Shown: piece after piece, positions 13,400-63,528 of the stretch
Position numbering within the stretch: the first letter of the stretch is position 1
Layout: each line of letters begins with the position of its first letter
Assembly: GCA_044892525.1 (NCBI GenBank)
Contig: CM097885.1
Span: 19,532,001-19,596,000, forward strand
Reading direction: 5' to 3'
Length of the DNA: 64,000 nucleotides
From: Schmidtea polychroa
Taxonomy: Eukaryota
Notes under the pieces: model-generated
What the model was told of the DNA's origin: nothing
Seen by the model: only the letters and a program-made list of their open reading frames with translations
Databases searched by the model: none
Translations under genes and position numbers: made by a program

Positions 13400-14692
13400 T
13401 CATCGTCGTTTAAGGAGTTTCTGGAAACTATTTCGAAATTCTCTGTTAAGAATGGTGTACAAAATCGGGTTTATAGAACTGTTGGCATAGCCGAACCAAG
13501 TGACAATAATTTGCAGCCAGCGATAAACTGGGCAAATGGATTCGCTACATAAAGCTCGCACCATGTACATAATAGTGAAAGGAATCCAGCATAAAATAAA
13601 AATAACCATTATTAATAACATAATTTTCGTGGCGCGAGTCTCTCGTTTTTCAGCTCGAACTATGCTATTAGCTCGTCGTCGTTTTTTGTAATTGGATCTG
13701 TAGCTTTTTTTAGTGAATTTCTTTGTATCCTCATTGGGGATGAGTTCTGAGTTGTTTGTGTTTAATTTCATCTCCCATAAAGGTGTCTGTGGCAGCAGAA
13801 ATTCCACTGATATGCATCGTAGACCCTGTTTGGATTTCTTTTTGGAAATTGAAGATGCTATGGCTTTCAGTTCACTCGTTTGCACAGAACAATCGGGATC
13901 CGAACTATTTTCATCGGTTTCGGTGTGAGTTTTCATTGAAGAAATAAATTTTGGTTTTAACAATGTCGCAGTTGGTTGGTTGTCTGACGAGTAATTATCC
14001 TCTGTATTTTGAGTGTCTGATTTGGAAAAGAGGTTCTTTTTTTGATTGATAATTGTAAATATTCGAATGTATACACCTGACATTATGATTAAAGGTAGAA
14101 TGAAAGATCCCATTGCGGAATATATTACATAATACGGTTCATTGAATAACTGACACTGATATTGATGGGTGCTGTTGTCGTATTGTAAATTATTAAAAAA
14201 CTTTATAACGGGGTTTTTAAAACCATTTCCAGTCCAGCCAATAATTTGTGGGATGCATATTATTGAAGATAAAGACCAAACGACAATAATGTAAGGTTTC
14301 GTCCGTCTGACGTGAGAACTAGACCTATACCAGATTGGAAACTTTGTGGCGGTGTAACGATCACAGGCTATCATCACCAGACTCCATACAGAGGCTGTAC
14401 AATACAAAACATCAGTATTGAGCCAAATGTTACAAATGTGAACTCCAAATGGCCAGTGTCCACAAAAGTCATTGACAATCGCTAATGGTAAAACTGTAGC
14501 TGCCAATAACATGTCACTCAAAGCAAGATTGCCGATTAATAAGTTTGCAGTTGTTCTCAGAAATCTGTTATGGGAGATTGTTATAATGATGATCAAATTT
14601 CCTATGATAGTCCACAAGGTTATCATTGAAGGAACAATTGAAAATATATACAATGCCCAATCTGGAATGGATTCCATTTCAGAACTAATCAA
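13400..14692 (-). CDS. Class A GPCR, biogenic amine receptor (tyramine/octopamine/adrenergic-like)
   Basis: Uninterrupted 430-aa ORF with 7 TM segments: GN (TM1), LALSD (TM2), amine-binding Asp in DVLYCTAS, DRY, TM5 YSAMGSFILP, long ICL3, CWIPF, WFGYANS and NPILY. First ATG is at 14677; an upstream exon is possible. Confidence 0.95.
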   Translation of the reverse strand: MISSEMESIPDWALYIFSIVPSMITLWTIIGNLIIIITISHNRFLRTTANLLIGNLALSDMLLAATVLPLAIVNDFCGHWPFGVHICNIWLNTDVLYCTASVWSLVMIACDRYTATKFPIWYRSSSHVRRTKPYIIVVWSLSSIICIPQIIGWTGNGFKNPVIKFFNNLQYDNSTHQYQCQLFNEPYYVIYSAMGSFILPLIIMSGVYIRIFTIINQKKNLFSKSDTQNTEDNYSSDNQPTATLLKPKFISSMKTHTETDENSSDPDCSVQTSELKAIASSISKKKSKQGLRCISVEFLLPQTPLWEMKLNTNNSELIPNEDTKKFTKKSYRSNYKKRRRANSIVRAEKRETRATKIMLLIMVIFILCWIPFTIMYMVRALCSESICPVYRWLQIIVTWFGYANSSINPILYTILNREFRNSFQKLLKRR

Positions 14693-16920
14693 AAGAACTA
14701 TTAATGAAAAGATTTTTAAAATAATTTAAAAATAATTCAGTTTAAAGTGACCATATAAATATATTTTTTGATTTGACAATATTAGAAAAAGAAACTCACA
14801 TATTTACTACCGATTTCAGTTTTGAAAACTATATAAATTTGAAGCATTTTATTTATTTGAAATTGTGTCAAGAAATTATTTTGTTTTGTTTCTACTTCAT
14901 TATTCTTACAATAAATTACACTTTATAAACTCTCTATTAACTTCACTTTGTATGTATGTTTCAATGTTTGTATGAGTCACGTAAATCTTGTGGCGGCAAA
15001 TTAACCTACTTCCCGTGATTTGATCGACCTGAAATTTGGCAGATAGATTAGTCGTCCAGAACAATGCACTCTTTTAAAATTTCAGATCGATCGAAGGTGC
15101 TATAGAATACTTTTTGAAACATTTCAATTTCATTAATATTTTCAAAATTTCTTTCAAAATATTAATAAAGTGGTCCTTTCAAAGTAATTTCTTAAATAGG
15201 TGATTTTTCATAATATTAAATATTTCATAGCATTGAACACATATTGAAATTTTAATTTTGAGAGAATGTAAAATAAAGAGAAAATATTAAAAATTATATT
15301 TTTACGGTTAGTTTTCTATCAGTTAATTACATTTAAAAAAAATTTAAATGATAATTTAAGCCTTTTGCTGCGAATAATATATTTAATACAAATGAAAGGA
15401 TACAGAAACCTTTTTTAAAACTAATATAAAAAATTAATTTTAATTTTAAAACTAAAAATTGTTTTTATACAAAATATTTAACAAACAAACATCATCCCAA
15501 ATATTAAATATACAAGTTAATTTATTATTTGGGATGATGTTGTTTGTTAAATATTTGTACAAGATTGTTAACAATTTTGTGCGTTTTATTAATATAATTT
15601 TTATATCAAAACGGATCAAAATCACTTGAAAAAGGCAGTGCCGAAAATTTGTGAATATCAAAATGAGAATCGATATATTTACTGATTTCAAGCTTTTTAA
15701 TAAATTACATTTTTATATGATTAAATAAAATGTTTTTTTAAATTTTTATAAAAATATCTTTTTTGATACAGTTTGATTACGATTATTAGTGGTTAATTTG
15801 TTTGAATATTATTATTTTCATTTAGTTGTTATTAATACAACTATTAGTCTGAAGAAGACTGTTAAACGTTGTAATTATATAGAAATGTTATATTTTAATA
15901 TACTTTGTTGGTGATTTTCTATTTATATATACATTGATCTCACCAAAGCTTGCATATGAATCAGTAAATATATCGATGTTTAAAAAGGCAGTGCCGAAAA
16001 TTCGTAATTATCAAAAACATTGAAATATATATATGTTCTATTATTATGTTCAAGAAAATATCCCAAAACCCCTTTCAAATCATAATAAAAATTCATGCTA
16101 ATGACTAAAAATATATAAATATTTTATACTTCGATTTATGCTATATTTTTTGTTTTTATACGGATAAAAGAATATTAAGTGAATGTTTTATTAATATCCA
16201 CCAAAGCAAAGATTTTAATGGGAAAATGTTCCCAATTACTTAGTTCGGAAATCGAATATATTTTGCCCTCTTGAAATTCAGTAACATATTTGTCATCAGT
16301 TAATGGGAAAAAGATATTAAATTCAACAAGGCATAGAATAGAGAAGATTATACCAGTTCATTTGACTGTATGAAATTAATCATATCCCCAATAACGGTTG
16401 ACAGATAACACGCGGGAAAAAACAAAGTTGAACAATGAATTCCCTTTACTACAAAATGAATTTACAATAGATTTGAGTTTGTAATTGAATTCTTTTCGCC
16501 AATTACTTCAAGCTATTACTTTTTTCTGAACAATTTAAAGACCGTGAAACGAAATTATGAAGAAAAGTAATTTTTATTTTCGTTTTTAACAAAATTCATT
16601 TTTTTAGATTCATCCAATCGGAATTGATTTCTCCCCCCCCCCCTAATAAAACGGATAAATTCAATTTTGATCATGTAATAAAAACTATCATTTCCTCGAA
16701 CACAGTTGTTTGAAATATTTTTGTAGAATTTATAAAAATATTATTTGTTTTAATTAATGTCAAGAAAATAATTTAGATATTTTTTTAGTAAAAAAATTCA
16801 TTATCAGCAGCAGAGGATGCTAAGGTTTTTCATGATCAAAGGTTTATGGTAAAAAATGAGATCGAGGAATAGATTATTCGAAAAAATATGCTATTTTTAT
16901 TTATACAAAAATTTTTATAT

Positions 16921-20955: not shown

Positions 20956-22155
20956 TTAAGGGGAACCAGGTGAATAGTCTTCAATGATATCATCTAAAGC
21001 AGACGTTGGTTGAGTGAATGTATTTTGTTCAGAATCTTTAGCTGTGTCGGATGTATGACAATTAACAATATCGACTCTAAGATCACTGTCATTGCTCTCA
21101 GAATCTGGCATAATTCGATCAGTTTCTAAATGATTTTCTGAGGAAGCAGAATCCGCTTGAATATTAACTACGTCTTCCATGTTTTGAAAATTATCTACTA
21201 CCAAAGAATTCGGTCTTTCGATAACATTAATGTCGACAACATCTGTGCCTAAATAACTATTATGATTTTCATTCTTGTCTGACACATCTACTTCAGTTTC
21301 ATCATATTTACTTTCAAAATTTTCTTCTTAATTGTGAGTTTTGACAATATTTTCTGATTCATCTGCTGTAACTTGGTCTCCTTTATCAAAATCTTTGTCT
21401 AATAGTTCAGTATTATTTTTTACAAATTCAGAATAATTATTCTCGTTCTCATTGACTCGATTTTGCTCTATTTCATCTTGATTTATAATATCGTTAGATT
21501 GTAAATTATCCCATTCATTGCTTTCACTATCTCCATCTTCGCTAGCATTTTTGTTTTCATGTGTTTCATCATTTTCATCACATTCTTTAATATAATCCAT
21601 TTCTTCAGAATTATCTACATCATGAATAATCATTTCTCCGTCATTTTCATCTTTATTATTTTCGATATCTGAATCCTTTTTTGAATCGGAAGGATTTATT
21701 ACATCTATGGAATCTATTTCGTTATTCTCAAGGAAATTTTGTGGATTACCGTCATCTTGAGTAATATGCTTTAATTCATCACAATCCTTTATTTTGTCAT
21801 AATTGTTAAATGGGTTTTGATTAAAATTAGATTCGTCAGTTCCTCCAAAATGGAATATTTGCCCATCTAAATGACTCTGAGCTCCTTGCTCCTCATTAGA
21901 TGTCTTACTAATGTCGAGTTTTGTGTCCTCAATTCCCCGCAATGCATGTAACTCGTCATTTAACATTTTCGTTACTGCAAAATAACTCCGAGCCAAATGC
22001 GAACCTCTTGGAGCTTGATTTCTTGCAATTGGTTTTCTCTCCATGAAGTTTGTGAACTTCTTCAATTTCCCCACATCCTTCCTACTCTCTGGAATTCTCT
22101 CCCCAAACAATATATTCAAGGCTTTTCGATGCCTATCGGCTTCTTGTTGATCCAA
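20956..22155 (-). pseudogene. Gag tail running into a D/E/N-rich coding segment that replaces pol
   Basis: ORFs 21328-22155 and 20956-21285 are in the same frame, separated by one TAA; no protease, RT or RNase H motifs. Confidence 0.7.
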
Positions 22156-23027
22156 TCGGCTAGAGTTTGTACATTTCCTTCTCTCCCCGAATCACAATGG
22201 CGTGACCACTGAATCAGCATGGTCTCTGGCAACTTCTTCAGCAGTTGATGATACAACATTCTGTTGTTCAACTCGCCTTCCCTCTTCTGTTCCTTGAAAT
22301 TCAGGATGAGGTTTCCCAGCAGCTCTTCAAACCGCTCTAGGTCCTCCAGTACGTTGAGCCTCACTGGAAAAAACCTCTGCACCGCGTCCAGCATCATTGA
22401 ATAGGATCTTTCTGGTCCCCCATACCTCTCATCCAGTAATTTCATCGCCGCCTCGAAAGCCTGCGAGCCATATCCAATATAGGCAATCAATTGCAACGGC
22501 TTCCCTTCCAAGTACTGTCTCAGGTACAAGTACTTTCTCTCACTCGGCTCATCTGTGTCCTCGATGCAGGCTCTCACAATTGCCCTCCATCCAGGATACT
22601 CCATTACCTTTCCATTAAATATCGGCAGCTGTAAGGGTTTCAATCCCATTATGAACTTCGGTTTTTCATTGGGCTCTTCATTCCTAAATGATTTCTCTGG
22701 GACCTTCCGCGACTCTACTCTAAAACTTTCTTCCTTCTGCGTGAGGACCAGATCACCGATTCTGCTAAAATCCGCTTCTATTCGTCTCAGATCTGCCTCA
22801 ATTTCCTTCGCTTCTTTCTCCCGTCCTAACTCCAGAGCATTATTCTTCAGCTTCTCAAATTCGTTCATGACTTCCTCATACTTGTCTTCGTATGCCTCCA
22901 TTCTCCTTTGTTCTTCCCCATGGTCCGATCCATCTCCTAAGGCCCGGTTACGTAGACGCCCTAACGAAATCTTCCACCCGGTTCGTCTTTTGTAACCGGC
23001 CTCGAACTCAGCATCTGATACTGGACT
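22116..23027 (-). pseudogene. gag: BEL/Pao Gag (DUF1759-like), frameshifted near 22145
   Basis: Coiled-coil N-terminus, [27 protein letters not shown] and LLDERYG motifs typical of BEL/Pao Gag. Confidence 0.88.
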
Positions 23028-23492
<465 letters not shown>

Positions 23493-31788: not shown

Positions 31789-32141
31789 TTTATTAATAAT
31801 TAATATTTTATAATTATTTCAAAACAGTACAAATTTGATATTTGCAAAATAACTAGCGAGATGCCTGAACCTAGAGACATTATTAGTTGTAAAAGAAAGA
31901 TATATTTTCTGCATTGAAATTTTCCATTTAATTCTGATACATATCACTCAGTACATCGTTTTCAGATAAACTAATACTGACAAATGTCTACTATTAGAGG
32001 CTGGAAATTTCTAATTATTGGCAATATTGGTCGTAATTTCAATTTCTACAGAATAATTAATATTGAAAGTATTCATAATATTGCAAAAATGCAGAATGTT
32101 TTATGAAAATTCTCTCGAAATCTAATATTTAAATACCCATT

Positions 32142-34205
32142 ATGGCGTGTTCCAAAAAAATGAAGTTTGATATTCCCCAATTTCAGTCTTCTTGGACAAC
32201 AGATTACGGGTTTATTTTAAAAAATGATCGTACTATTTGCGCCTTATGTTTGGAAACTATTGTAACCAGAACGTCAAGTGTAAAGCGTCACTTTGAAACA
32301 AAACACAAAGGATCCTTCAAGTGTGAGACAGAAAAAAATGAATCTATTAAAAATGATGTGGCTCGATATGAGAAGCAAACAAACGTTTTTGTAAACATGA
32401 TCGGTAGAAAAAATCAAGCAACTGAAGCTAGCTACAAAATCTCACAGTGTATTGCAAATTTCGGAAAGCCATTTACAGACGGTGATTATATTAAAGAGAT
32501 TTTCCTCAAGTTCTCTGAAGTGCTGTTTGATGATCTTCCCAATAAAAACATAATTTTTTCAAGGATAAAAGAAATGCCTACTTCTGCTAGGACGGTTGAG
32601 AGAATATAAAAGAACAGCACACTGATGCGTTAAGGAATGCTTGCGTCCTGAGTATGTCACTTGATGAGAGTGTTGATATAAACGGGATACCACGTTTGGC
32701 AATTGTAACTAGACACGGTGATACTGAAATGCGTGAGGAATTATGTTGTCTCGAATCTATGCATGGTAATACAACGGGAAAAGATATTTTAAAAACGTTT
32801 ATCGATTATTTTGAAGAAAGAGGAATTGACATCAAGAAGATATTTGCTGTTACGACAGATGGTGCTCCTGCCATGTTAGGTAGGCTAAATGGATTCGTCA
32901 ATTTACTTGAAGAAATAATTGGCTATCCCATTTTAAAGTTTCAGTGCATTATTCACCAAGAGAATATTTGTGCAAAGATTTCAAAACCCGATCTTAACAA
33001 GGTTATGTCAACCGTATCTAAAATTGTAAATTTTCTTGTGGCACTCTCTTCTCTAAAAATAAGACAGTTCGAAGCTTTACTTCAAGAGATGGAGAGTGCA
33101 TATCATCATATACCCCTTCACTGTAACGTTAGATGGCTAAGTTGCGGTAAAGATCTGGTAAGGCTTGTTGGATGCTTCGACTCAATCAAAGTCTTTTTGG
33201 AAGAAAAATCTGAAAGATATCCCGAACTTGAAAACACACAGTGGCTTATAAAACTTATGTTTTTAACTGACCTCACAGCTCACCTCAGCGAGTTTAATTT
33301 ACGTCTGCAAGGTGTTGGACAAACGGTTATGGAGCTTTATGAGATATGGAAAGCATTTGTTTCCAAAATCGAGATCTATAATGAGGATATTAAAACAGGG
33401 AATCTTCGTTACTTCAAACATCTGAAACATTTCATTGAAAACTGTAAAGATCCAGATGTAACTCTTTGTGTAACTGATGAGTATATGGATGCACTAAAAT
33501 TAGAATTTTTGAATCGATTCAAAGATTTTAAGTCATTTGGCCCAATGTTTTCTTTTTTAATAAAACCAGATAATATTGAGAACTTCAATTTGCTTGTCTT
33601 TGAATGGATGGCCATTGAAGATTTTGAGATGCAATTAATCGATTTTAAAGTATCTTCATTATGGGTAAATAAATTTGCAGAGCTACGAAAAAGTTTGGAA
33701 AATTCTACCAACAATTATGAGCAATCAAATTCAATCCTAAATTGTTGGTCATCTCTCCCCGAAAAGTTTGACTGTCTCAAGAAAGTTGCATTTGCAATGC
33801 TTTCAGCCATTGGTTCGACTTATATATGTGAACAAATATTTTCGCATATGAAGTTCATTATTAATCCCTATTGAAGTCGGCTTACTACAGATCACTTCGA
33901 AGCATGTGTCCGAATTAAAGTCTCAAAATACGTTCCTGATATCCCAAAGCTAAGCAAAGCCAAGCAAGGCCAAGGATCACACTAGACTAGATGATTAGAA
34001 AATGATTTGTTGATATGAAATATTTGTATATTAAAATATAAATATTATAATTTCTTTTTACATTAAATTTGAATATTCCAACAAGAAGTGTTTTTGTACC
34101 TATCATTTAAAATTATGTAGTTGTCGCTTCTCGGCACGCGAAGAATAAAAAAATAAGAAAATAATGAAAAATGGCACTCCAGTACTAAAAGGTTGCCGAC
34201 CCCTG
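32142..34205 (+). mobile_element. hAT (Buster/SPIN, GTF2IRD2/EPM2AIP1-like) transposon, disrupted transposase plus right TIR
   Basis: BED-like CxxC...HFETKH, LDES, TTDGAP, CIIHQE, VRWLS and STYICEQ motifs; a break at ~32609 and a stop at 33874; right end ggttgccgacccctg at 34205; left TIR not found. Confidence 0.92.
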
Positions 34206-37134: not shown

Positions 37135-38609
37135 CAGCGCTTCTCAACCGTTTTTGGCTTATATTAGAAAAAAAATTAAAATATTAATACTCGCGTATTT
37201 GTTATTATTTTAAACTTGTTCGAACACTAAATAAATAGCAAATAATGTTTCAAGGAGTATGCTCAGAATGTGTATTGATGAAAAGTAAAACATTTATTAT
37301 AGTTACATATATTTTAATAAAAAACGAAATGAATATACACTATAATATTTTTTACATTAAAATTTTTCATTATTTTTAACTTAACTTATTACATTTAGTG
37401 AGATCCTTGAGCTTGCTTTGAGGCGCATAGTTTTTTGAAGTCAAGTTCGATTGATGCAAGGTTATAATCTTAAATCTGGAGCTGCATTCAGCTTATTACG
37501 GCATTTGTTTTTAATAAATAGATATGAAGAGAATGCTCTTTCCACCAGTACTGTACTTGTAAATGTTAACAAAACGTTAAGCGCTTTGGCAGAAAGCAAT
37601 TCATATTCGGTGCTGATATGTGACCAAAAGTTAATAAAATATTTTCTTTTAAATTCGACTTTCAAAGTAGAGTCATTTGAAATTACAATTAAGTTCTCTT
37701 TTTCAGTGATTGATAATTTAGTTATTCGAAAGTATCCGTCATTGAAAGGATTTGAAATCCAATTGTTTCCTACATCAGGTTTGTGAAAATACTTCTCGAA
37801 ATTTGATTTTAGCTCTTTTAAGTGTTCAGATATGTTGCTCAATTCTCTGGAGAGGCAAAGTTTATTCTCTGATAGGAAATTGTGCAAAGTTTCAAATACC
37901 TCCGGTTGACCGTTTTCAATACATGTTCTCCTAAAATTATTTTTTTAATCATTGATTCAATTTTATCCGAGACATTGAATATCGATTTGGAGTTATTTTA
38001 AAGTGCTAAATTTAGATTGTTTGTACGTAGGAAAATGTCTGATAAATACGCAAGCGTCTGAAGTCAATTACAGTCGTGAAACTTGGAAGCAAGTTGAAAA
38101 GGATGTTTTTCGAAGAAAGCCTGTACTTCATGTTTAAGCTCGAACAATCGGGTAAGGACCTTGCCTCGAGATTGCCACCTTACCTCTGTATGATATAGCA
38201 GAATAGAATGAACACTATCAAAATCTACACAGAGCTTTAAAAATTCTCGAGTTGGTTGAACTTGACTTATAAAATTAACCACTTTCGTAGCGTCGTCAAG
38301 AACAAGCTTCATTTGCACTGGAAGGTGCTTAGATGCTAAACTTTGCCTGTGGATCAACAGTGACTTCAACTTATTTTGGGAGCTATCTTTGTAACATTGG
38401 GTCCATTTGAATTCTAACACAACCCGTTGTAATGTGATGATGCAATTCCGAGTGGCACACATAACTTTGAACAATATTTTGTGTATAAATAGTGAACGTT
38501 AAAACAAATTTTTGTCAAATATTTGCCACCGCTTTGAAACTAAATTGAGGTAGGAGTTACATTTTTAACATCCGTCATTACTAATATTTTTTCGCGTTGG
38601 GAATCGCTG
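37135..38609 (-). mobile_element. hAT Buster-type (ZBED5/SCAND3-like) deleted element
   Basis: TIRs cagcgcttctcaac / gttgggaatcgctg, TSD cgctatag/tgctatag; HRQSLA, HTEVRWQSRG and STVLVERAFS motifs. Confidence 0.9.
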
Positions 38610-52925: not shown

Positions 52926-54818
52926 ATTGACAATATTGCTTGATTTAAGACGTTTATTAATATCTTGATTCTTTTAAGTTTGCTAAAACTACGTTTACAC
53001 GAAGCAAATGTTATTGGGAGGGTTAATAATAAATAATAAGGGTACTCGATAATAAATATTGGCCTTGTTTTATATATAAAAAATTATTGTGTTTTCGAAG
53101 GAACTTTTGATGTTTCCACATCACAAATTATTCCATTCAAACAAATATGTAAAATTAATAACACATTTAGAAAATCAACAAAATATGAAGTTGTTAATAA
53201 GTGTTTACGCTCAAAAATAAATATTAATTTTGTGAATCCATTAAAAATTCTTTTAAAAATGCGTTACGAAACCACTTAAAAATTACAGTTAAAATTTATT
53301 ATTACACTAAAAAATTAAATTAAAAACAATTAAAAAAATATTATCTCTACATTAACGCGATTGACAGACCCTTATTTATTGTCATCTATGCAATTACTTA
53401 TGGCGCTTCTTGTGACAAGTATGTTAACTTTAGCATTAACATAGATTATATTAAATTAATCAGCATTCATATCTGAACAATATTTATACTAAATATAATA
53501 AAATCATGAAATATTATAAACAAACGGACGGAAATTCAATGATTAATTTATTATAATTCAATCAATAATTAATAAATTAAATTAAATTAGGTGAACTAGA
53601 TTAAATCGATGAAATAAATGATAAAATTGAATGTTTTTAGGGTAATTAAAAATTAAAATTTATTTTGATTTTATAATTTCGATAATAAATAATTTTTTTC
53701 ATTTATTTACTTTATGCAGAGACGAAATAAATAAAAATATTTAACATTTATTGAATGTTTTTCATTTTGCTTTCCTAAGATTTATAAGATTAGATCAATA
53801 AATTCATATCATACACAAATTTTGATTATTAGTTAATGATAGTCTTATTAATTAAATATAAATAAATCTTTTATATTTTAAATTAATTAAGCAGAATTCA
53901 ACCTACTTAGACTTGTTTGCTTTATAAAGGTTTCGGTAGCAAAAATCTTACGACTACTCTAGCTCCATGTGGTTTCTCATTTAACAACTTAGATTCAAAA
54001 CTCTTGAAACTCAATTTATAAAAAAAATTTGAAATCCTCTCATTCAAAGACCACACAAAGGTAGAATTCGTTACAAGCATTATTTCTATTTACAGATTAT
54101 ACAATTAGGCAAATCTTCCTAAATGAGAATGTCAAAATTTGACAGTTTATGTTTTTTTATTTCAATGGTTCTCTTTTTTATCATTATTGAACACTTTCTA
54201 TGCACAACGCGCTTGCCTTCAATCAAAATGGAAATCTATATCTATATTTATCAAATATGTTGTATACACCTAATTCCGAAATTGAACATTGTCTATAGTA
54301 TACGTTGGTGTGCACACCAGTTGAGGTGACTCACAATTTATGTGACAATGATTACTTAACTTCATTTTTTCAATTTTTAAAAATCGTTTTCAGGTATGTT
54401 TTTGAATTTTAAGTAACTTTTAAGACTTAAATTTTGATTTTATATAATTATGAGATCATTATTGAAGCTTTTAAATATTACTTTTAGTCAGCATTTATAA
54501 TATAAATTATTTTTAATTAAATTTCAGGTGTTTTTTAGGAATTTTATGAAATTAATTGAAATTATTTCGATAAAATGTAAGTCAAATATATTTTTAACTA
54601 TAAACAAATAAAGTAATCACCGAAGATATTAATTTTTTTAATACAAATGGGAAAGAATAAAATGGATAAAATAGTTTTTTAAATTTAAACCGAATTTTGT
54701 CTGTAGTTCTGTGAAAATATTAATTCCTTTTTAAGTTAACGTTTCGTATTTTAATGAATAAATCTTACATTGCCAAATCTTCACCTTGGCAAAAAGGTAG
54801 CGTTTTCACTGAAATATC

Positions 54819-55957
54819 TGTAGTGAGCCGTTACACGGCCTTAACAATATCTATATACTTATTATACTATATTATATTATATTATATTATATATAAATGC
54901 GCGGTCACCAACGAATAAGGACCAAACAGAACACAAGTATAGTCAATCAAAAGTCGTGCGATCAGCTAATACTTCTACTTATCAATCAGGCTCTATTAAT
55001 CAATCTCAGACGAGTAAAGCAAATTCGATGCCATGTTATCATTATCAAGATAAACTGTATTCGGCTCCCAATAGTTTTAGTGTTGGCTCTCATAGACCAA
55101 CACCCTCATCCATTACAATTCGCGAAAGACGGAACAAATCCTAACAATAATATGAACCCGAAAAGATCTTTTTATCAAACCACCACACGTCTTTACAAAT
55201 TCTGATCAAGGTGATAATGCAAAAAAGGATCAGAACGGCAAAGGATATACATTTCCTCAAATATTGTATGCGAATGAGAATGGTCAAAATGGTTCATGGA
55301 CAAATCGGCAGGCTGTAAAATCTTTAGAAATAATCGGACTATATGAAATTATTATTTTTAGTTAACATTTTGTAAATGAGAAATGCCTGTTGAATATGTT
55401 TATCTGGTCTGATTATATTTTCATTTTTTATATAGTTTCTATAATATATTTTTGTTTTACTTAAATAAGTGAAAATGGTAATTTAAATAAAAATTGTGTA
55501 AATCGAATTTATTATATAAATTGTCTGACTTTAAATTGAATTTAATTACTTTTCTTCTCAAATGATTTTAAAATTATTTAGATTACTGATATTGTTAAAT
55601 TTCATAACCTCGAACAAGGAGGAAGTATGTAAGGATATTAATTCATCTGATGATAGGTATTCACAAATCGTGTTATTGAATCACCTTCCATTTGGTCTTG
55701 TTAATAAAACTAATATCATACAAAAGATAATCATGCTAGATGAGTGGGACGAATGTATTAAATATTGTTGTGACTACAAACAATGTGACGCGGTTTTGTT
55801 CAATACTACCCATTGTAAAATAATTCATTGCGAAAATCCATCATTATGTCAGCCAGAAAAAAAGAAAACTGAAGAATTATTTTGCGTTTTCTCGAATAAT
55901 GGTCAAAGAAATGATTCTATTGCCAAATCACCAGAAAGGACTACGCCAACCACAACA
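54819..55957 (+). repeat. 5' LTR (1139 bp)
   Basis: Matches 62085-63207 except for about three substitutions and a 16-bp indel. Confidence 0.97.
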
Positions 55958-58549
55958 TTGGTGTCAGAAGTGCCAGAACAATGTTCAAGATTTGAACATT
56001 TAGAAACTTATTTAGCGGCTAATATCATTGCTAAATCCAGATTACAGGAAATACAATCTATGTTAGTTTCTCATAAACGAACAGTGGAATTACGTCAAAA
56101 TATGTTCCATATGCTTTCCAAAATATTTACTGAATTAAAACTTTCATCAAAATTTAATCCTATATCCCATGATATTGATAGGCTGATAGATCATTTGATA
56201 ATTGCTCATTCCTGTTGTTTGTCATCAAATCGAGAAGAGTATATCAAATTAATTCAGACAATTCCAGATCGTGATTCTTTGGATCCCGTAGTCGTTCTAT
56301 GTGATTCCATTTAGAGCCCTGCAAATATCACAGATAATAATCATATTCCAAATGGTCAATTTCAAATTTCTGACCCGATAAATAAATCGTCTTTCAAATT
56401 TATCAGTAAAAGTATTCAATTACAATCTGAATCATCGGATACTAAATCCGAATTTTCCCTATTCAGTGCTTTCAATAGCTCAGCTGGTAATGATATTACT
56501 GAATTCCACAGTACACTGAATTCCACATCTCCCCTGTTACGGCTTTCAGATCAGAAATCATTTATGAACAGTTTGAATTCAGTTGGTTCGTCGAATTCTC
56601 TGCTGGAAAGTTTCTGCCAGTTAAATTCTCAAAACCACGCCGCAATCAAGAATAACAACAATAATAATCAGTCATACCATCACAACATCAATCAACAGGC
56701 AAACAACAACGGTGTGCTTAACTACGGTCAGTATCAGGATCGAAACGAAATGGATATAAATCGCATATTTGGCTCGGAGAAACTGAATTCACATTACGAT
56801 CAGAAATATAAAGATACAGCCGATATAGATTTTGATTCGATTAATGTTTCCCGGCAAGCATTGGCTGAGATGATTGCCGTTGAAAATCGTAAAAAAATGA
56901 CTCCGATCAATAATTATATACCAAATAACAAATTGCTAACGAGTGAGGTCTTATACACAGCCCCACAACGCATCATGCTTCGACCAAATCCAAATGAATT
57001 CTTAATGCAACAGAATAATGATTTTTTCACATTAAACTCTCGTGCACCGGGACAGCCATTTATTCACGATAATAAACCATCTCCCAGCGAATCGAGACTC
57101 AATCAAGCAATGCCCGTGTCAGCACCGCCAGGTACCTTAGATCGATTACCTCTAAATTATATTATTATATTATTAAATTATACTATATTATTATTGATTT
57201 ATATTATTATTGATATCATATATAAAATTATAATAAATTATTTAAATAAGCATCAGCCCACACGAGAGGGTAGCGCCGCACCGGGGCCCAAAAAGTTCCA
57301 AATATTACTAGAAAACCCTGGAACAAATAAGACACAAACCGTTTCAGTTGACACAGACACTACAATTAGAGGTCTTTCTAAAAATTACAGCATATTGACT
57401 AATCACAAATGCCGTTTTCTCTTGTCGTATAACGGCAACATTATTTCCGACAGTCGTACCTTGGGCGACTATGGAGTGACACCATACAGCGTCATTCATT
57501 GTTTGTTGCCATTTTTTGGCGGTTCCTCCGATTCGGAGAATGACTCAGGCAGCAACCCCAAACAGGCAAAACATAAACGTAGGTCCAACAACCAGCGATC
57601 AACGTACTTATGTCAATATTTTTTGGATGAGAATAACTCTCCACTTACTTGGCTGATAGCTACCGAACTAGCACTCGAGGGAATCGAGGTAACCAGTTCA
57701 CGAGACAAATACTGTCGCATCTTGCCGTTGATTCCGCCGACGATATTATGTAAACTTTCGTCCGTGATCCTTCGCACTTCGCCTACTAGCGTAAAAAACC
57801 CATATGAAGAATTGCGTACGGCAATCCTCGATATTTTTAAGGAACCTACAGCTGCCGTCTTCACTAAATACTTTAAGATGCAAACTTTGGGCAGCAGGAA
57901 ACCATCACAGTTCTTGCAACACGCCATGGCGGAACTAACGCAAATACATCCGGAGGCTGCGGCGGATCAAAAACTCTTGAGGCAATTTTTTCTGTCCGCT
58001 TTACCGCCACACGCACAACAAATTTTAGCGCTTTCGTCAACAGCAGACGTGGTAGAGCTAGCAAAGATGGCCGACAAGATTAACGAAGTCGTGCCACTTG
58101 GTCCGCAACCAACTTGCTCTGTGCAGTTAAGTAGCAGCACTAACCCCGAAATTTTACCTTCTTCTTCTTCTTCTTTGAAACCTTCGACCGAAGAAGCCTT
58201 ACTTTGCGCTATTACAGGCCTCACTAAACGCATCAGCGAGCTTGAGAATAGCATGTCCACCAGGCGGACAAATGACGACAGGCAATATGCCCAAAAATCA
58301 CACTTTGTGCAAAATACTCGTCAACGTTCACCTTCCCCTGCAACCAGGAACCTGTGCCGTTTCCATTTTAAGTTTCGTAACAAGGCACGGTTCTGCCATC
58401 TAGGTTGCAATTGGCGAGATAAAGCACCATCCTGTCAGATACTTGACAAGTGCATATACCACGACAGGTTCGGAGATAAAGCCTTAAAATGCTTCGAAGG
58501 CTGCTCCAATTACACAAAACCTAAAGCAAACAATCAAAAAAACTTATAA
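55562..58549 (+). CDS. gag: Extended Gag polyprotein frame: signal peptide-MANEC-linker-[TAG]-N/Q-rich region-hydrophobic segment-UBL-Gag
   Basis: ORFs 55562-56314 and 56564-58549 are in the same frame and 56315-56563 is stop-free, so the only interruption is TAG at 56312-56314. Gag motifs NPYEELR, LGSRKPSQFL and two CHCC knuckles. Confidence 0.8.
55959..55972 (+). other. Primer-binding site (tRNA-Leu type)
   Basis: TGGTGTCAGAAGTG one base after the 5' LTR. Confidence 0.85.
57296..57523 (+). other. Ubiquitin-like domain, 76 aa, ending FFGG
   Basis: FQILLE...KTQTVSVDTDTTI...LSYNGNIISDSRTLGDYGVTPYSVIHCLLPFFGG, compared with ubiquitin [34 protein letters not shown]. Confidence 0.9.
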
Positions 58550-58582
58550 TGCCACCACTTCTAGCGGCAGAGGTGGGAGGCA
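58537..58582 (+). promoter_or_regulatory. -1 programmed ribosomal frameshift signal (gag to pol)
   Basis: A AAA AAC heptamer at 58537-58543, then a hairpin tgcc-a-ccacttct...agaggtgg-ga-ggca starting 6 nt downstream; pol is in the -1 frame. Confidence 0.8.
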
Positions 58583-61500
58583 AAATTTCATCAAAATCAG
58601 ATTTATTTTTAATAGAAGCAGAGTCAAACGCTTTTAATATATTGTCGTCTCCTTCCAACAGACTAAAATTCCTTGTCGACACTGGTTCCAGCTTGTCGAT
58701 CTTACCTAAAGAGTACCTTCCAGACCTCAACACTGTCGATATTTCTTTGAAGGCCGCAAACGGTAGTGTTGTTGAGACTTTAGGTTCAAAGACAATTGCT
58801 TTCTCGTTGCCATTTCTGTCCGACCAATTATTTGAGTGGAAATTTTATATAGCAGAGGTTATTATCCCCATATTAGGATCTGATTTTTTAAGCGCTAACG
58901 AACTACTCGTAGATTGCCATGGACGCACTTTAAGGATAAATAACCAATTAAACTGCAGCACTATTCCCTCAAACATCTTTGAAGATCCACAGCGGATAGG
59001 AACGGACGATATAAATACTACTCCGTCGAAAACGGTTATAACAATCGAACACCCAAAAATAGCCTTAGATATTATTAATAGGTGTTTTAACACGCCAATA
59101 AGTGACGTTTCGAAGCCGCTTTACTGCCACGTGATCGACACAACTTCATCTTTACCAGTTAGATGCAAAATTAGACCACTGTCGAATGAAAAACTCGAAT
59201 TTGTACGTTCCGAGTTCACTAACCTCTTACATGAGGGTACCATTCGGAGATCTAAATCTCCATGGTCATCGCCATTGCACCTGGTCCCAAAAAAAGATGG
59301 CACTTTCCGTCCGTGTGGCAACTATCGAAACCTTAATGCTATTACGGTACATGATTCCTATAGCATGCCGCTTGTTAGTGATATCCTTCACCGTCTTTCA
59401 AAGGCAAAGATTTTCTCCACAATCGACCTCGTGAAGGCGTACCATCAGATACCCGTGCGAGAGTCTGACATAGAAAAAACAGCCGTAATAACTCCGATCG
59501 GACTTTTCGAGTACGTGCATATGCCTATTTGGCCTTCGTAATTCTGCACAGACCTTTCAAAGGTATATTGATCAAGTCTTAATGGACCTGCCTTTCGCAG
59601 TTCCTTACATAGACGACATTTTAATCGGATCACCTGATTTAGAGACGCATATAACCCATCTGACAAGAACTTTAACAGCACTTCAGCAATACAACCTTAA
59701 GGTAAACGTTGATAAGTGTACCTTCTTCCAACACGAGACTCGTTTTCTGGGACATTTAATTTCCGGAGATGGAATCCGACCTCCTCCGGATAGACTAGAT
59801 ACCATAGCCAAATTCCCACTTCCAAAAACAGTTTCACAACTGAGAAGTTTTTTGGGAACGATAAACTATTGTCATCGTTTTATTCCAGGGGTTTCTGACA
59901 TTTTGTCACCTCTTTCAGGTCTTGTTTCAAAACCAAAAAAGTCTTTAGTGTCATGGAGCGATACCACACTCAGTGCATTTGAAAACGCTAAGTCGGCACT
60001 TTCGAAAATTCAAACACTCCATTTTCCCAATGCTGATTTACCTTGGAGTCGGACCACTGATGCATCAAACGTTGCTATTGGTGCAGTATTACACCAATTA
60101 CATAATGACATTTCTGAACTCTTAGAGTTTTTCTCAAAGAAACTTTCTTCCGCACAACGGAAATATTCGGCTTTCGACCGAGAACTCTTAGGCATATATC
60201 TGTCAATCAAACATTTCAAGCACTTGCTTGAAGGTCGTCCTTTTGTCATCTACACTGACCACAAACCGCTAACTTATCTTTTTGGAATGAAAGACCCATC
60301 TCCACGACAACAGAGGCAAATCAGTTATATTTCAGAATTTTCTTGCGAAATACGCCACATTGCCGGCAAAGAAAACGTTATTGCAGACTGTCTTTCCCGC
60401 AGTACCAACGCTATATTGCACGATCCGATTTTTCCAGTACAGTGCCTCCGCGACAATCCACCTTCGGCAAAAGATCTAGCTGCTTTTGGCGATAAGCTTG
60501 AAATCGTGGACGGAGTACACTTTGACTCGTCTTTATCAGGTGTTTTAAGACCGATTTTGCACGATTCCTTACGGAAATTAGCTTTCCACTCCATTCACGA
60601 CTTACATCATCCAGGTTCGTCGGCTACCTTCAACCTATTGCATTCACATGTGGTTTGGCCAGCAATGAGGCACTATATTAAATTGTGGGTGAGTCAGTGC
60701 ATCGGTTGTCAACAACACAAGATCACTAGACACACTAAGCCACAGATGATTCACTATCCGACCGGAAATAGGTTCGAAATTCTTCACATCGACCTGGTCG
60801 GCCCCTTGCCTTCTGATCGTGGTTTTTCTTACTTATTAACCATGATTGACCGGAAAACGCGTTGGTTTGAGGTTATACCTCTAAAAAGCATTTCTGCTGA
60901 AATTGTAGCAAATTCAATTTTGCAACATTGGATTTCTAGATACGGTGTTCCAAAATCAATAATCACAGACAGGGGATCTCAGTTTGAATCCCAGCTATTT
61001 CAACAACTAACTGAAAAGCTCGGTATACAACACCTCCGTTCAACTGCTTACCATCCTCAGACAAACGGCATGATCGAAAGATTTCACCGTACTTTGAAGA
61101 CTTCTCTTGGAATACTTTCATCGAGACTTAATTGGACTAAAGCTTTACCTTTTGTCCTTCTTGGTTGGCGTAACACACCCTCCAGGACTACCGGAACTAC
61201 ACCGGCACAGTTACTTTTCGGTTCTTCAACATCGTTACCTAACGAATTAGTTGATTTCGATAACGCTCCTACCTTTGAGGAATTAGATATGGCTAGAGAT
61301 CATTTTCTTTCGATCGATAGCAACCCACAGTTTTCGTATGCTTCCTCATATACACCGTACGTCCCAAAGTCCTTCAAGGACGCAACTCACGTTTATCTTC
61401 GTAATATTACGGATTCAGGTCTCAAACCGAGATATTCGGGGCCTTACAAATTGATCGACATTAAGGATAACAATGCTCACATCGTTATTAACGGTGTTAC

Positions 61501-61915
61501 CCAAAATATAAATTTGTGCCGACTTAAACCTGCTTTCATGATTTCTGATGACGTGGACGAAAACAAACTTCACTCTGATTTAGAGAAAGTCTCAGTCGAA
61601 CCCATTCCAACTACGTCGAACGAAAACCCTTCAGTAGAACCTGCCACAGACTCAAACGAAATCGCGCGTACCTTGATCACAAACTACCAACGCGATATAA
61701 AGTTAGCTACAGAGAATACACATCCAGCAACAACAAATCCACTAAATCTTCGCTCAATTGTTTCGAAACCCGACAAGCAGCAAACCGCGAAAAATGTGAA
61801 AAATAGTGATAAGATTTGGGTGCGCCAAATTGGTGAAGACATTTCCAAACCTCCAAGACTTGCCAGAGTCTATTCCAATGAAAATTTGACACATCTGATG
61901 CTGAAATTCACTTAA
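58549..61915 (+). pseudogene. pol: Pol (protease, RT, RNase H, integrase) with a 1-bp insertion at ~59527
   Basis: LVDTGS, IDLVKAYHQI, MP(a)FGLRN, YIDD, TDAS, HHCC, HIDLVGP, TDRGSQF, MIERFH and GPY motifs. Confidence 0.95.
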
Positions 61916-62084
61916 CTTTATTCCATGTGATCAATTAATTCATCAATCGCCGATTTCCTTTTTAGACACTATCCACCTTTGATAAATTGTCACTACTCTT
62001 CGACTTACATCTTGTTTCTAGTAGATCTTTCATCAATCTCTATTCTTGAGTCCCTGTGCGCTCCGCGACTTCCCGTGGGGCTGA

Positions 62085-63207
62085 TGTAGTGAGCCGTTAC
62101 ACGGCCTTAACAATATCTATATACCTATTATACTATATTATATTATATTATATTATATATAAATGCGCGGTCACCAACGAATAAGGACCAAACAGAACAC
62201 AAGTATAGTCAATCAAAAGTCGTGCGATCAGCTAATACTTCTACTTATCAATCAGGCTCTATTAATCAATCTCAGACGAGTAAAGCAAATTCGATGCCAT
62301 GTTATCATTATCAAGATAAACTGTATTCGGCTCCCAATAGTTTTAGTGTTGGCTCTCATAGACCAACACCCTCATCCATTACAATTCGCGAAAGACGGAA
62401 CAAATCCTAACAATAATATGAACCCGAAAAGATCTTTTTATCAAACCACCACACGTCTTTACAAATTCTGATCAAGGTGATAATGCAAAAAAGGATCAGA
62501 ACGGCAAAGGATATACATTTCCTCAAATATTGTATGCGAATGAGAATGGTCAAAATGGTTCATGGACAAATCGGCAGGCTGTAAAATCTTTAGAAATAAT
62601 CGGACTATATGAAATTATTATTTTTAGTTAACATTTTGTAAATGAGAAATGCCTGTTGAATATGTTTACCTGGTCTGATTATATTTTCATTTTTTATATA
62701 GTTTCTATAATATATTTTTGTTTTACTTAAATAAGTGAAAATGGTAATTTAAATAAAAATTGTGTAAATCGAATTTATTATATAAATTGTCTGACTTTAA
62801 ATTGAATTTAATTGATTTTAAAATTATTTAAATTACTGATATTGTTAAATTTCATAACCTCGAACAAGGAGGAAGTATGTAAGGATATTAATTCATCTGA
62901 TGATAGGTATTCACAAATCGTGTTATTGAATCACCTTCCATTTGGTCTTGTTAATAAAACTAATATCATACAAAAGATAATCATGCTAGATGAGTGGGAC
63001 GAATGTATTAAATATTGTTGTGACTACAAACAATGTGACGCGGTTTTGTTCAATACTACCCATTGTAAAATAATTCATTGCGAAAATCCATCATTATGTC
63101 AGCCAGAAAAAAAGAAAACTGAAGAATTATTTTGCGTTTTCTCGAATAATGGTCAAAGAAATGATTCTATTGCCAAATCACCAGAAAGGACTACGCCAAC
63201 CACAACA
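62085..63207 (+). repeat. 3' LTR (1123 bp)
   Basis: Preceded by gtggggctga (weak PPT), followed by TSD ATATC. Confidence 0.97.
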
Positions 63208-63528
63208 ATATCTGAAACTTTAAAGAAATAGAGAATGGAATAAGATTGGAATAATATTGTTAAATTCCACAAGAAGACAATCATATGTTGTTTGAGTCAT
63301 ATTAGGTAATAAGCATTACACTGCTGCTGGATTGATTCCGTGTTCTCTAGTCTTTTCCAATATTCATAGTTGATATACGTAGTTCGTTCAATAATGCCTG
63401 GGACTGACTAAGGAAGAAATATGATAAACCAATCAAACCGATTTGTTTTAGCACCTACATATATGTTTGTTTATATGCATAAATTAAATAATCTGATGGA
63501 CTGACGTACGTACTCCATTTTTTGTCAA

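Follow-up and report, generated by a model that had tools for sequence, protein, structure and literature searches.

A fragment of host CNOT4 with an altered CAF40-binding motif in the Gag leader of a Schmidtea polychroa Ty3/Gypsy retrotransposon

Within a 64-kb stretch of the Schmidtea polychroa genome (hereafter the window), the open reading frame at positions 56315-58549 contains the Gag of a retrotransposon together with a leader that precedes it. This leader carries, in frame, the sequence DTADIDFDSINVSRQALAEMIAVE (56813..56884, + strand), which an initial annotation made from the letters took for the motif that docks NOT4 on the CAF40 subunit of the CCR4-NOT deadenylase. The metazoan NOT4 C-terminal region contains a 23-residue CAF40-binding motif as described by Keskeny et al. 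(2019; PMC6362812). The locus therefore raises the questions of whether the resemblance is genuine, how such a peptide came to stand ahead of a capsid protein, and whether it serves the element there.

The resemblance proves to be genuine. Among the 120 CNOT4 homologues that we fetched, 118 have a [LI][GD]FDP motif, with the flatworm proteins carrying IDFDP in place of LGFDP, and the consensus used in the initial annotation agrees with these real proteins. We built a profile from 33 distinct CNOT4 motifs and searched it against 2015 frames drawn from the window and the host CNOT4 locus. The element peptide scores 24.9 bits (E 1.3e-6), host CNOT4 scores 35.7 and the next-best frame scores 8.1. 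The top score among 1000 shuffles of the leader was 4.2 bits, and on these comparisons a chance motif is ruled out. A sequence search of the PDB with the 48-residue motif region returned no matches, although the peptide is too short for this result to be informative.

The amphipathic helix of the motif is preserved in the element, in that the residues at Dm F821, T824, L828, L831, M832 and E835 are I, S, L, M, I and E, all identical to those of the host, and the host CAF40 retains the contact residues named in PMC6362812. The element departs from the host at the proline of FDP, which has become serine (codon 56837-56839). This proline is conserved in all 33 distinct CNOT4 motifs, yet not one of 77 element copies has the host codon, and a genome-wide search with the motif pattern gave 63 matches, of which 61 have Ser, one has Leu, and only the host gene has Pro. 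According to PMC6362812, LGFDP is invariant in NOT4, and its proline is part of a hydrophobic cluster, initiates the helix and lies above G141 of CAF40. The change to serine has likely weakened CAF40 binding, and we infer that an element motif lacking the proline would bind CAF40 weakly or not at all. The peptide of the window copy is found in 55 of the 78 motif-bearing copies, while 15 additionally lack Asp-Ile and eight are otherwise changed; the copies without Asp-Ile sit on very short branches of the Gag tree described below, and three copies have lost the whole motif by deletion. The element motif is a direct descendant of the NOT4 motif, with its helix contacts and terminal Glu kept, and differs from it in having Ser for Pro, in being cut from the RING and RRM domains, and in being fused into a Gag leader.

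The proposal that the motif arrived on a captured CNOT4 fragment also holds. Positions 56509-57110 of the window (602 nt) align with the large exon of the host CNOT4 gene at 586 of 626 bases (94%), and 24 of the gaps in this alignment represent a single deletion within an Asn repeat. Similarity to host CNOT4 thus reaches far past the motif, and the proposal survives the refuting condition set in the initial annotation. The captured part of the exon (56509..57105, +) encodes unstructured C-terminal sequence, without the RING, the RRM, the zinc finger or the PPPGF motif. The host gene is the sole RING_4 locus that we found, and it has an RRM/zinc-finger exon that matches CNOT4 proteins, as does its large exon. 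Contigs from four sequencing runs match 56511-57105 and then continue into host sequence; these runs are RNA by guess only, are represented by contigs only, and show the host allele at the Pro/Ser site, which makes them uninformative on expression of the element allele. When compared with the older form of the element, the CNOT4 piece is bounded by junction microhomologies, ATATT at its 5' side (plus a 12-nt duplication) and AATCA at its 3' side, and it took the place of a longer, distal GW182-like piece. It falls inside one exon; among the captured pieces, intron loss is seen for the MANEC piece only.

The carrier (54819-63207) is an 8.4-kb Ty3/Gypsy LTR retrotransposon, as indicated by its LTRs, target-site duplication, primer-binding site and domain order, all of which are present. 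Its 5' LTR (54819..55957, +; TG...CA) is 98.3% identical to its 3' LTR (62085..63207, +), which is preceded by a short purine-rich tract, and the element is flanked by the target-site duplication ATATC (54814..54818, +; second copy at 63208-63212). The primer-binding site TGGTGTCAGAAGTG (55959..55972, +), through which the leader reading frame continues, is presumably of the tRNA-Leu type; no tRNA gene was found within the 64-kb window. Gag proper (57524..58549, +) consists of a DUF7041 capsid part and Cys/His fingers, and begins where related Gags begin. Pol (58525..61915, +) has the order protease, RT, RNase H and integrase, and env is absent. The window copy is itself defective, with a premature TAG at 56312..56314 (+) and a Pol that is broken into two frames near 59500-59540.

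The CNOT4 piece is one of several host pieces that make up the leader, whose order is a MANEC 5' end within the LTR, an uncharacterised gene, a GW182-like piece, CNOT4, a hydrophobic stretch, a ubiquitin-like domain and then the capsid. The 3' half of the 5' LTR is its variable portion and is host-derived; it holds a 5' end captured from a host MANEC/PAN-domain gene (55491..55913, +; host locus L160, C4:69361077), which lacks the 47-nt intron of that gene and provides ATG 55562 together with a start that, read by eye, resembles a signal peptide. This MANEC 5' end is one of several interchangeable LTR variants and has 21 element matches. The piece of the uncharacterised gene (55994..56302, +) is 93% identical to host locus L135, for which relative and family searches gave no informative match.

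The source of the adjacent piece (56301..56497, +; 91% identity) is likely a GW182/TNRC6 gene, an assignment that we infer from architecture. GW182/TNRC6 proteins are described as having a W/GW-rich N-terminus, a UBA domain, a Q-rich region and a C-terminal RRM (PMC5594548). The host gene has a W-rich exon, flatworm homologues named as UBA-domain proteins with a weak Pfam UBA match (E 0.047), and an exon weakly resembling an RRM (E 0.7); searches with the host exon from which the piece derives gave no Pfam match and no direct family match. The part retained in the element is devoid of tryptophan. One copy (L105, C1:226.52 Mb) carries three GW182-like pieces that are 97-98% identical to the host and nearer to it than those of other copies, perhaps because the GW182-like mRNA was captured separately or more than once.

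Downstream of the CNOT4 piece is an AT-rich open stretch with a hydrophobic, transmembrane-like segment (57150..57250, +; Kyte-Doolittle 19-mer 2.59). An intron across the AT-rich interval 57132-57250 was considered and rejected, with no joint listed there and one contig passing through it unspliced. In two older copies (L127 and L129) the leader is ancestral and of greater length, and includes a TRIP12 piece as well as an unassigned region, and the hydrophobic stretch seems to have been derived from a leader of this type through deletion and duplication.

Across the family we count at least eight unrelated cargoes, namely pieces of the MANEC, uncharacterised, GW182-like and CNOT4 genes in the window copy, and lipin, DDX6-like, glutaredoxin, secretin-family GPCR or TRIP12 pieces in other copies. 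These captures are recent, at 91-99% identity to the host. In two loci, the LTR variant L136 (C1:117.25-117.26 Mb) and L164, the cargo comes from a DDX6/Dhh1-like helicase, of which the N-terminal half is present; it shares 98-99% identity with a host gene that has one exon (L163, C2:31567199). Among further candidates for LTR cargo, isochorismatase (E 0.28), ENGase (no match) and TAB1 (no match) were not confirmed, nor was a Skp1/BTB-like piece in older copies. In the LTR of L056, a run of more than 20 A is found where the captured 5' end joins, at about +410, which suggests that the switch may have taken place at the poly(A) tail of the element and that its poly(A) site lies near +410.

Between the hydrophobic stretch and the capsid lies a ubiquitin-like domain (57296..57523, +) that ends in Gly-Gly, in register with G75-G76 of ubiquitin. 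The Gly-Gly is retained in most copies, and the residues just after it can be aligned with the N-terminus of a related, leaderless Gag; we predict that the leader is cut off the capsid at this site. A ubiquitin unit acts as a processing site in ubiquitin-fusion precursors and in the ubiquitin inserts of cytopathic pestivirus polyproteins, and the element likewise has a Gly-Gly-ending, ubiquitin-like unit within a polyprotein. The element differs from these systems in that its domain is divergent and its cleavage predicted only. Ubiquitin proteases recognise the Arg72/Arg74 tail, whereas the element has Pro and Ser/Phe at these positions, and because these arginines are absent and the domain is only weakly constrained (see below), cleavage must be regarded as a prediction.

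To place the window copy among its relatives, we used the genome sequence (781 Mb, AT-rich, with four large contigs), in which a 24-mer from the ubiquitin-like domain matched 108 places, 100 of them listed. Of the 61 other pattern matches with the motif, 59 entered the comparison, together with one further copy and 38 of the 42 further family matches among those listed. Of 99 classified copies, 78 have the GW182-like piece and CNOT4 with the motif, three have the CNOT4 3' end only, 11 have the GW182-like piece only and seven have neither. A Gag tree of 82 distinct rows, rooted at its midpoint, places the CNOT4 copies together in one clade (96/82), which sits within a ladder made up of GW182-only and older copies. 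The order of cargoes on the tree is thus older cargo, GW182 and then CNOT4, and the most recent expansion falls in the CNOT4 clade.

Two LTRs are seen in 51 of 61 copies, and these are at least 99% identical in 46 of the 51 and fully identical in 14, which indicates that the family is young. Among 51 LTRs compared, the 3' halves fall into 11 clusters. The frame is open from the LTR through the Gag finger in 33 of the 61 copies, and 29 of these have an ATG in the LTR; an open leader-Gag frame accompanies an intact pol in 17. At two places (C309 and C2:139.86-139.88 Mb) the element stands in tandem arrays, with LTRs shared or flanks duplicated along with it. The initial annotation had noted that a signal peptide upstream conflicts with a cytosolic role for the motif unless translation restarts after the TAG, for example at ATG 56564. 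This conflict is particular to the window copy; in the family, the MANEC start is only one of several LTR variants. Two features bear on whether the motif would reach cytosolic CCR4-NOT: the signal-peptide-like start, present in some LTR variants only, and the hydrophobic segment downstream. The TAG, moreover, is private to the window copy (none of 77 others has it), and thus restart at ATG 56564 is unneeded, and is dismissed, as a mechanism for the family.

The motif is a piece of host CNOT4 mRNA, and in our judgement it probably, though far from certainly, persists as a passenger that the element tolerates, within a Gag leader that is translated and predicted to be cleaved from the capsid. 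Host mRNAs would be packed in the particle and copied in by template switching during reverse transcription, a route supported by the junction microhomology, the intronless MANEC piece and the several parent genes. Translation of Gag would then start within captured sequence: the copies examined contain no Met between the cargo end at 57110 and the capsid, so the start must lie in captured sequence and the captures must stay in frame. Cleavage after Gly-Gly would release the capsid from any upstream cargo, and for this reason the leader would tolerate whatever it acquired.

The reading frame and the pattern of substitution are the main evidence on this point. All seven leader indels common to at least five copies are in frame (three combine into one of them, for a net change of 3), whereas five that are common to only two or three copies break the frame, and the alternative frames contain 39 and 62 stops versus one in the Gag frame. 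From variants common to at least two of 77 copies, and with recombination and shared ancestry ignored, dN/dS is 1.26 for the uncharacterised gene, 1.04 for the GW182-like piece, 0.64 for CNOT4, 1.16 for the hydrophobic stretch, and 0.74 for the ubiquitin-like domain, which is weakly constrained (dN/dS 0.5-0.7), compared with 0.04-0.3 for Gag and Pol (Gag 0.20, Pol 0.10-0.30). The value for CNOT4 differs from that of Gag and Pol (p 4e-5) and does not differ significantly from neutrality (p 0.13). Thus, the CNOT4 piece is likely translated yet near-neutral in amino-acid change. Shared amino-acid changes affect 1 of 56 non-synonymous sites in the motif and 29 of 417 in the rest of the piece; this difference is not significant (p 0.24), and its direction is toward constraint, which counts against the passenger reading.

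The alternative that survives best is that the leader counters silencing. The released helix would dock on CAF40 in competition with NOT4 and with recruiters of the Roquin type and others, or the leader would pull CCR4-NOT or P-body factors to the sites of particle assembly, and the effect would have helped the CNOT4 subfamily displace the GW182-only one. Taken jointly, we consider these proposals doubtful. They draw on the host-identical helix contacts and the retained contact residues of host CAF40, and also on the tree order and the presence of the motif in 78 of 99 copies; both the preserved helix and the latest expansion within the CNOT4 clade count against a mere passenger. So does the fact that the GW182-like, CNOT4 and DDX6-like cargoes, the last captured at two loci, belong to one RNA-decay pathway. 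P-body proteins are reported to be required for assembly of yeast Ty3 (PMC4589538), and single point mutants of human NOT4-C are described as less effective than a quadruple mutant (PMC6362812).

Each of these points has a counterpart. Hitch-hiking also yields a ladder-like tree; sampling started from the motif, although the family-wide 24-mer search was independent of it; and the RNA-decay category was chosen post hoc and accounts for three among about 15 cargoes. The presence of these mRNAs at P-body-like sites of assembly, of the kind reported for Ty3 (PMC4589538), could suffice without selection. The signal-peptide variant would place the motif luminal to the hydrophobic segment, yet this variant spread to its 21 matches. 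Purifying selection is not significant, and a decoy function is further weakened by the loss of the proline in 77 of 77 copies, of Asp-Ile in 15 and of the entire motif in three. The most elaborate version, in which the lineage serially samples GW182, the NOT4 helix and DDX6, the helix acts as a decoy for or recruiter of CCR4-NOT, and the CNOT4 capture drove the burst, appears to us slightly more doubtful still.

A second alternative, which we regard as improbable, is that an intact motif on an RNA-binding Gag would recruit the deadenylase to the RNA of the element itself, and that selection disabled it, with Pro changed to Ser at once and Asp-Ile lost afterwards. Across about 198 codons only three amino-acid changes have reached fixation, and one of them falls at the invariant site, for which the rough chance is 7%; the numbers are small, and a founder C-to-T change requires no selection. 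The conserved GW182-like motif has lost its tryptophan in parallel in eight of nine older GW182-only copies, and the NOT4 C2 region causes decay when tethered (PMC6362812), whereas cleavage at Gly-Gly would separate the leader from Gag and hence the motif from the RNA-binding protein. The least likely of the readings, and a very improbable one, is that the cargo yields no stable protein and matters as RNA, being spliced out or, for example, giving rise to small RNAs that target host CNOT4 and GW182: near-identity to host mRNAs permits small-RNA cross-talk, and a probable-RNA contig of the element type skips 56412-56466 (55 nt, GT..AG), a form that by exact match is absent as DNA in 160 loci and so shows that some splicing happens, yet this splice would shift the frame ahead of the motif rather than link Gag to a start, and the widespread in-frame indels, the stops in the other frames and the lack of Met between 57110 and the capsid all stand against it.

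Gene capture by LTR elements is already known (PMC5131818; Bs1 in PMC7264820). Tan et al. (2016; PMC5131818) describe LTR-mediated retroposition by template switching, in which the retrocopy replaces internal ORFs and leaves the locus non-autonomous. The S. polychroa element shares with the system described there partial mRNAs, junction microhomology, several parent genes, intron loss and recopying, and differs from it in that the captures precede Gag in frame, some of the captured sequence lying in the LTR, and in that gag and pol remain intact in 17 of 61 copies. Maize Bs1, presented with retroviral transduction in PMC7264820, is likewise an LTR element with several host-gene pieces; the description of Bs1 there mentions neither a ubiquitin-like spacer nor RNA-decay cargo, both of which the present element has. 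Burro/GYPSM1 (PMC6431247) is a planarian Gypsy element whose polyprotein, like that of the element, includes extra host-like domains, among them a Ubi2/SUMO-like one. As described, Burro exceeds 30 kb and has an N-terminal Gag and an env-like region, whereas the element is 8.4 kb long, has no env, and carries recent cargo (91-99% identical to the host) on the N-terminal side of Gag. A literature search that covered few subscription papers and not Repbase found no retrotransposon with CNOT4 or GW182 pieces or with a ubiquitin-spaced Gag leader.

What is new here is that the captures are made by an autonomous element with recent activity, in the frame of its Gag, and that a ubiquitin-like spacer stands between, which would leave the leader free to try out host peptides. 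A single genome holds the host parent, the older state and about 80 descendants, and the fate of a captured short motif can thus be traced at single-base resolution. Should the CNOT4 helix have kept its binding to CAF40, the transposon would encode a mimic directed at the deadenylase. CCR4-NOT deadenylase is reported to be required for stem cell differentiation in planarians (PMC3868585) and to suppress retroelements in human cells (PMC13392606).

Three further sets of ORFs in the window were noted. At 22116-23153 (- strand), a BEL/Pao-type Gag (DUF1759) follows, in frame, a ubiquitin domain that ends in Gly-Gly, and from its sequence this is the same ubiquitin-before-Gag design as in the Gypsy carrier, in an unrelated LTR superfamily. 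The design thus looks convergent, which lessens the weight of any one cargo. An intron-less ORF of 441 aa at 13400-14725 (-) resembles, by eye, a biogenic-amine GPCR, and the ORFs at 32133-33874 (+) and 37462-37944 (-) resemble, also by eye, pieces of a hAT-type transposase.
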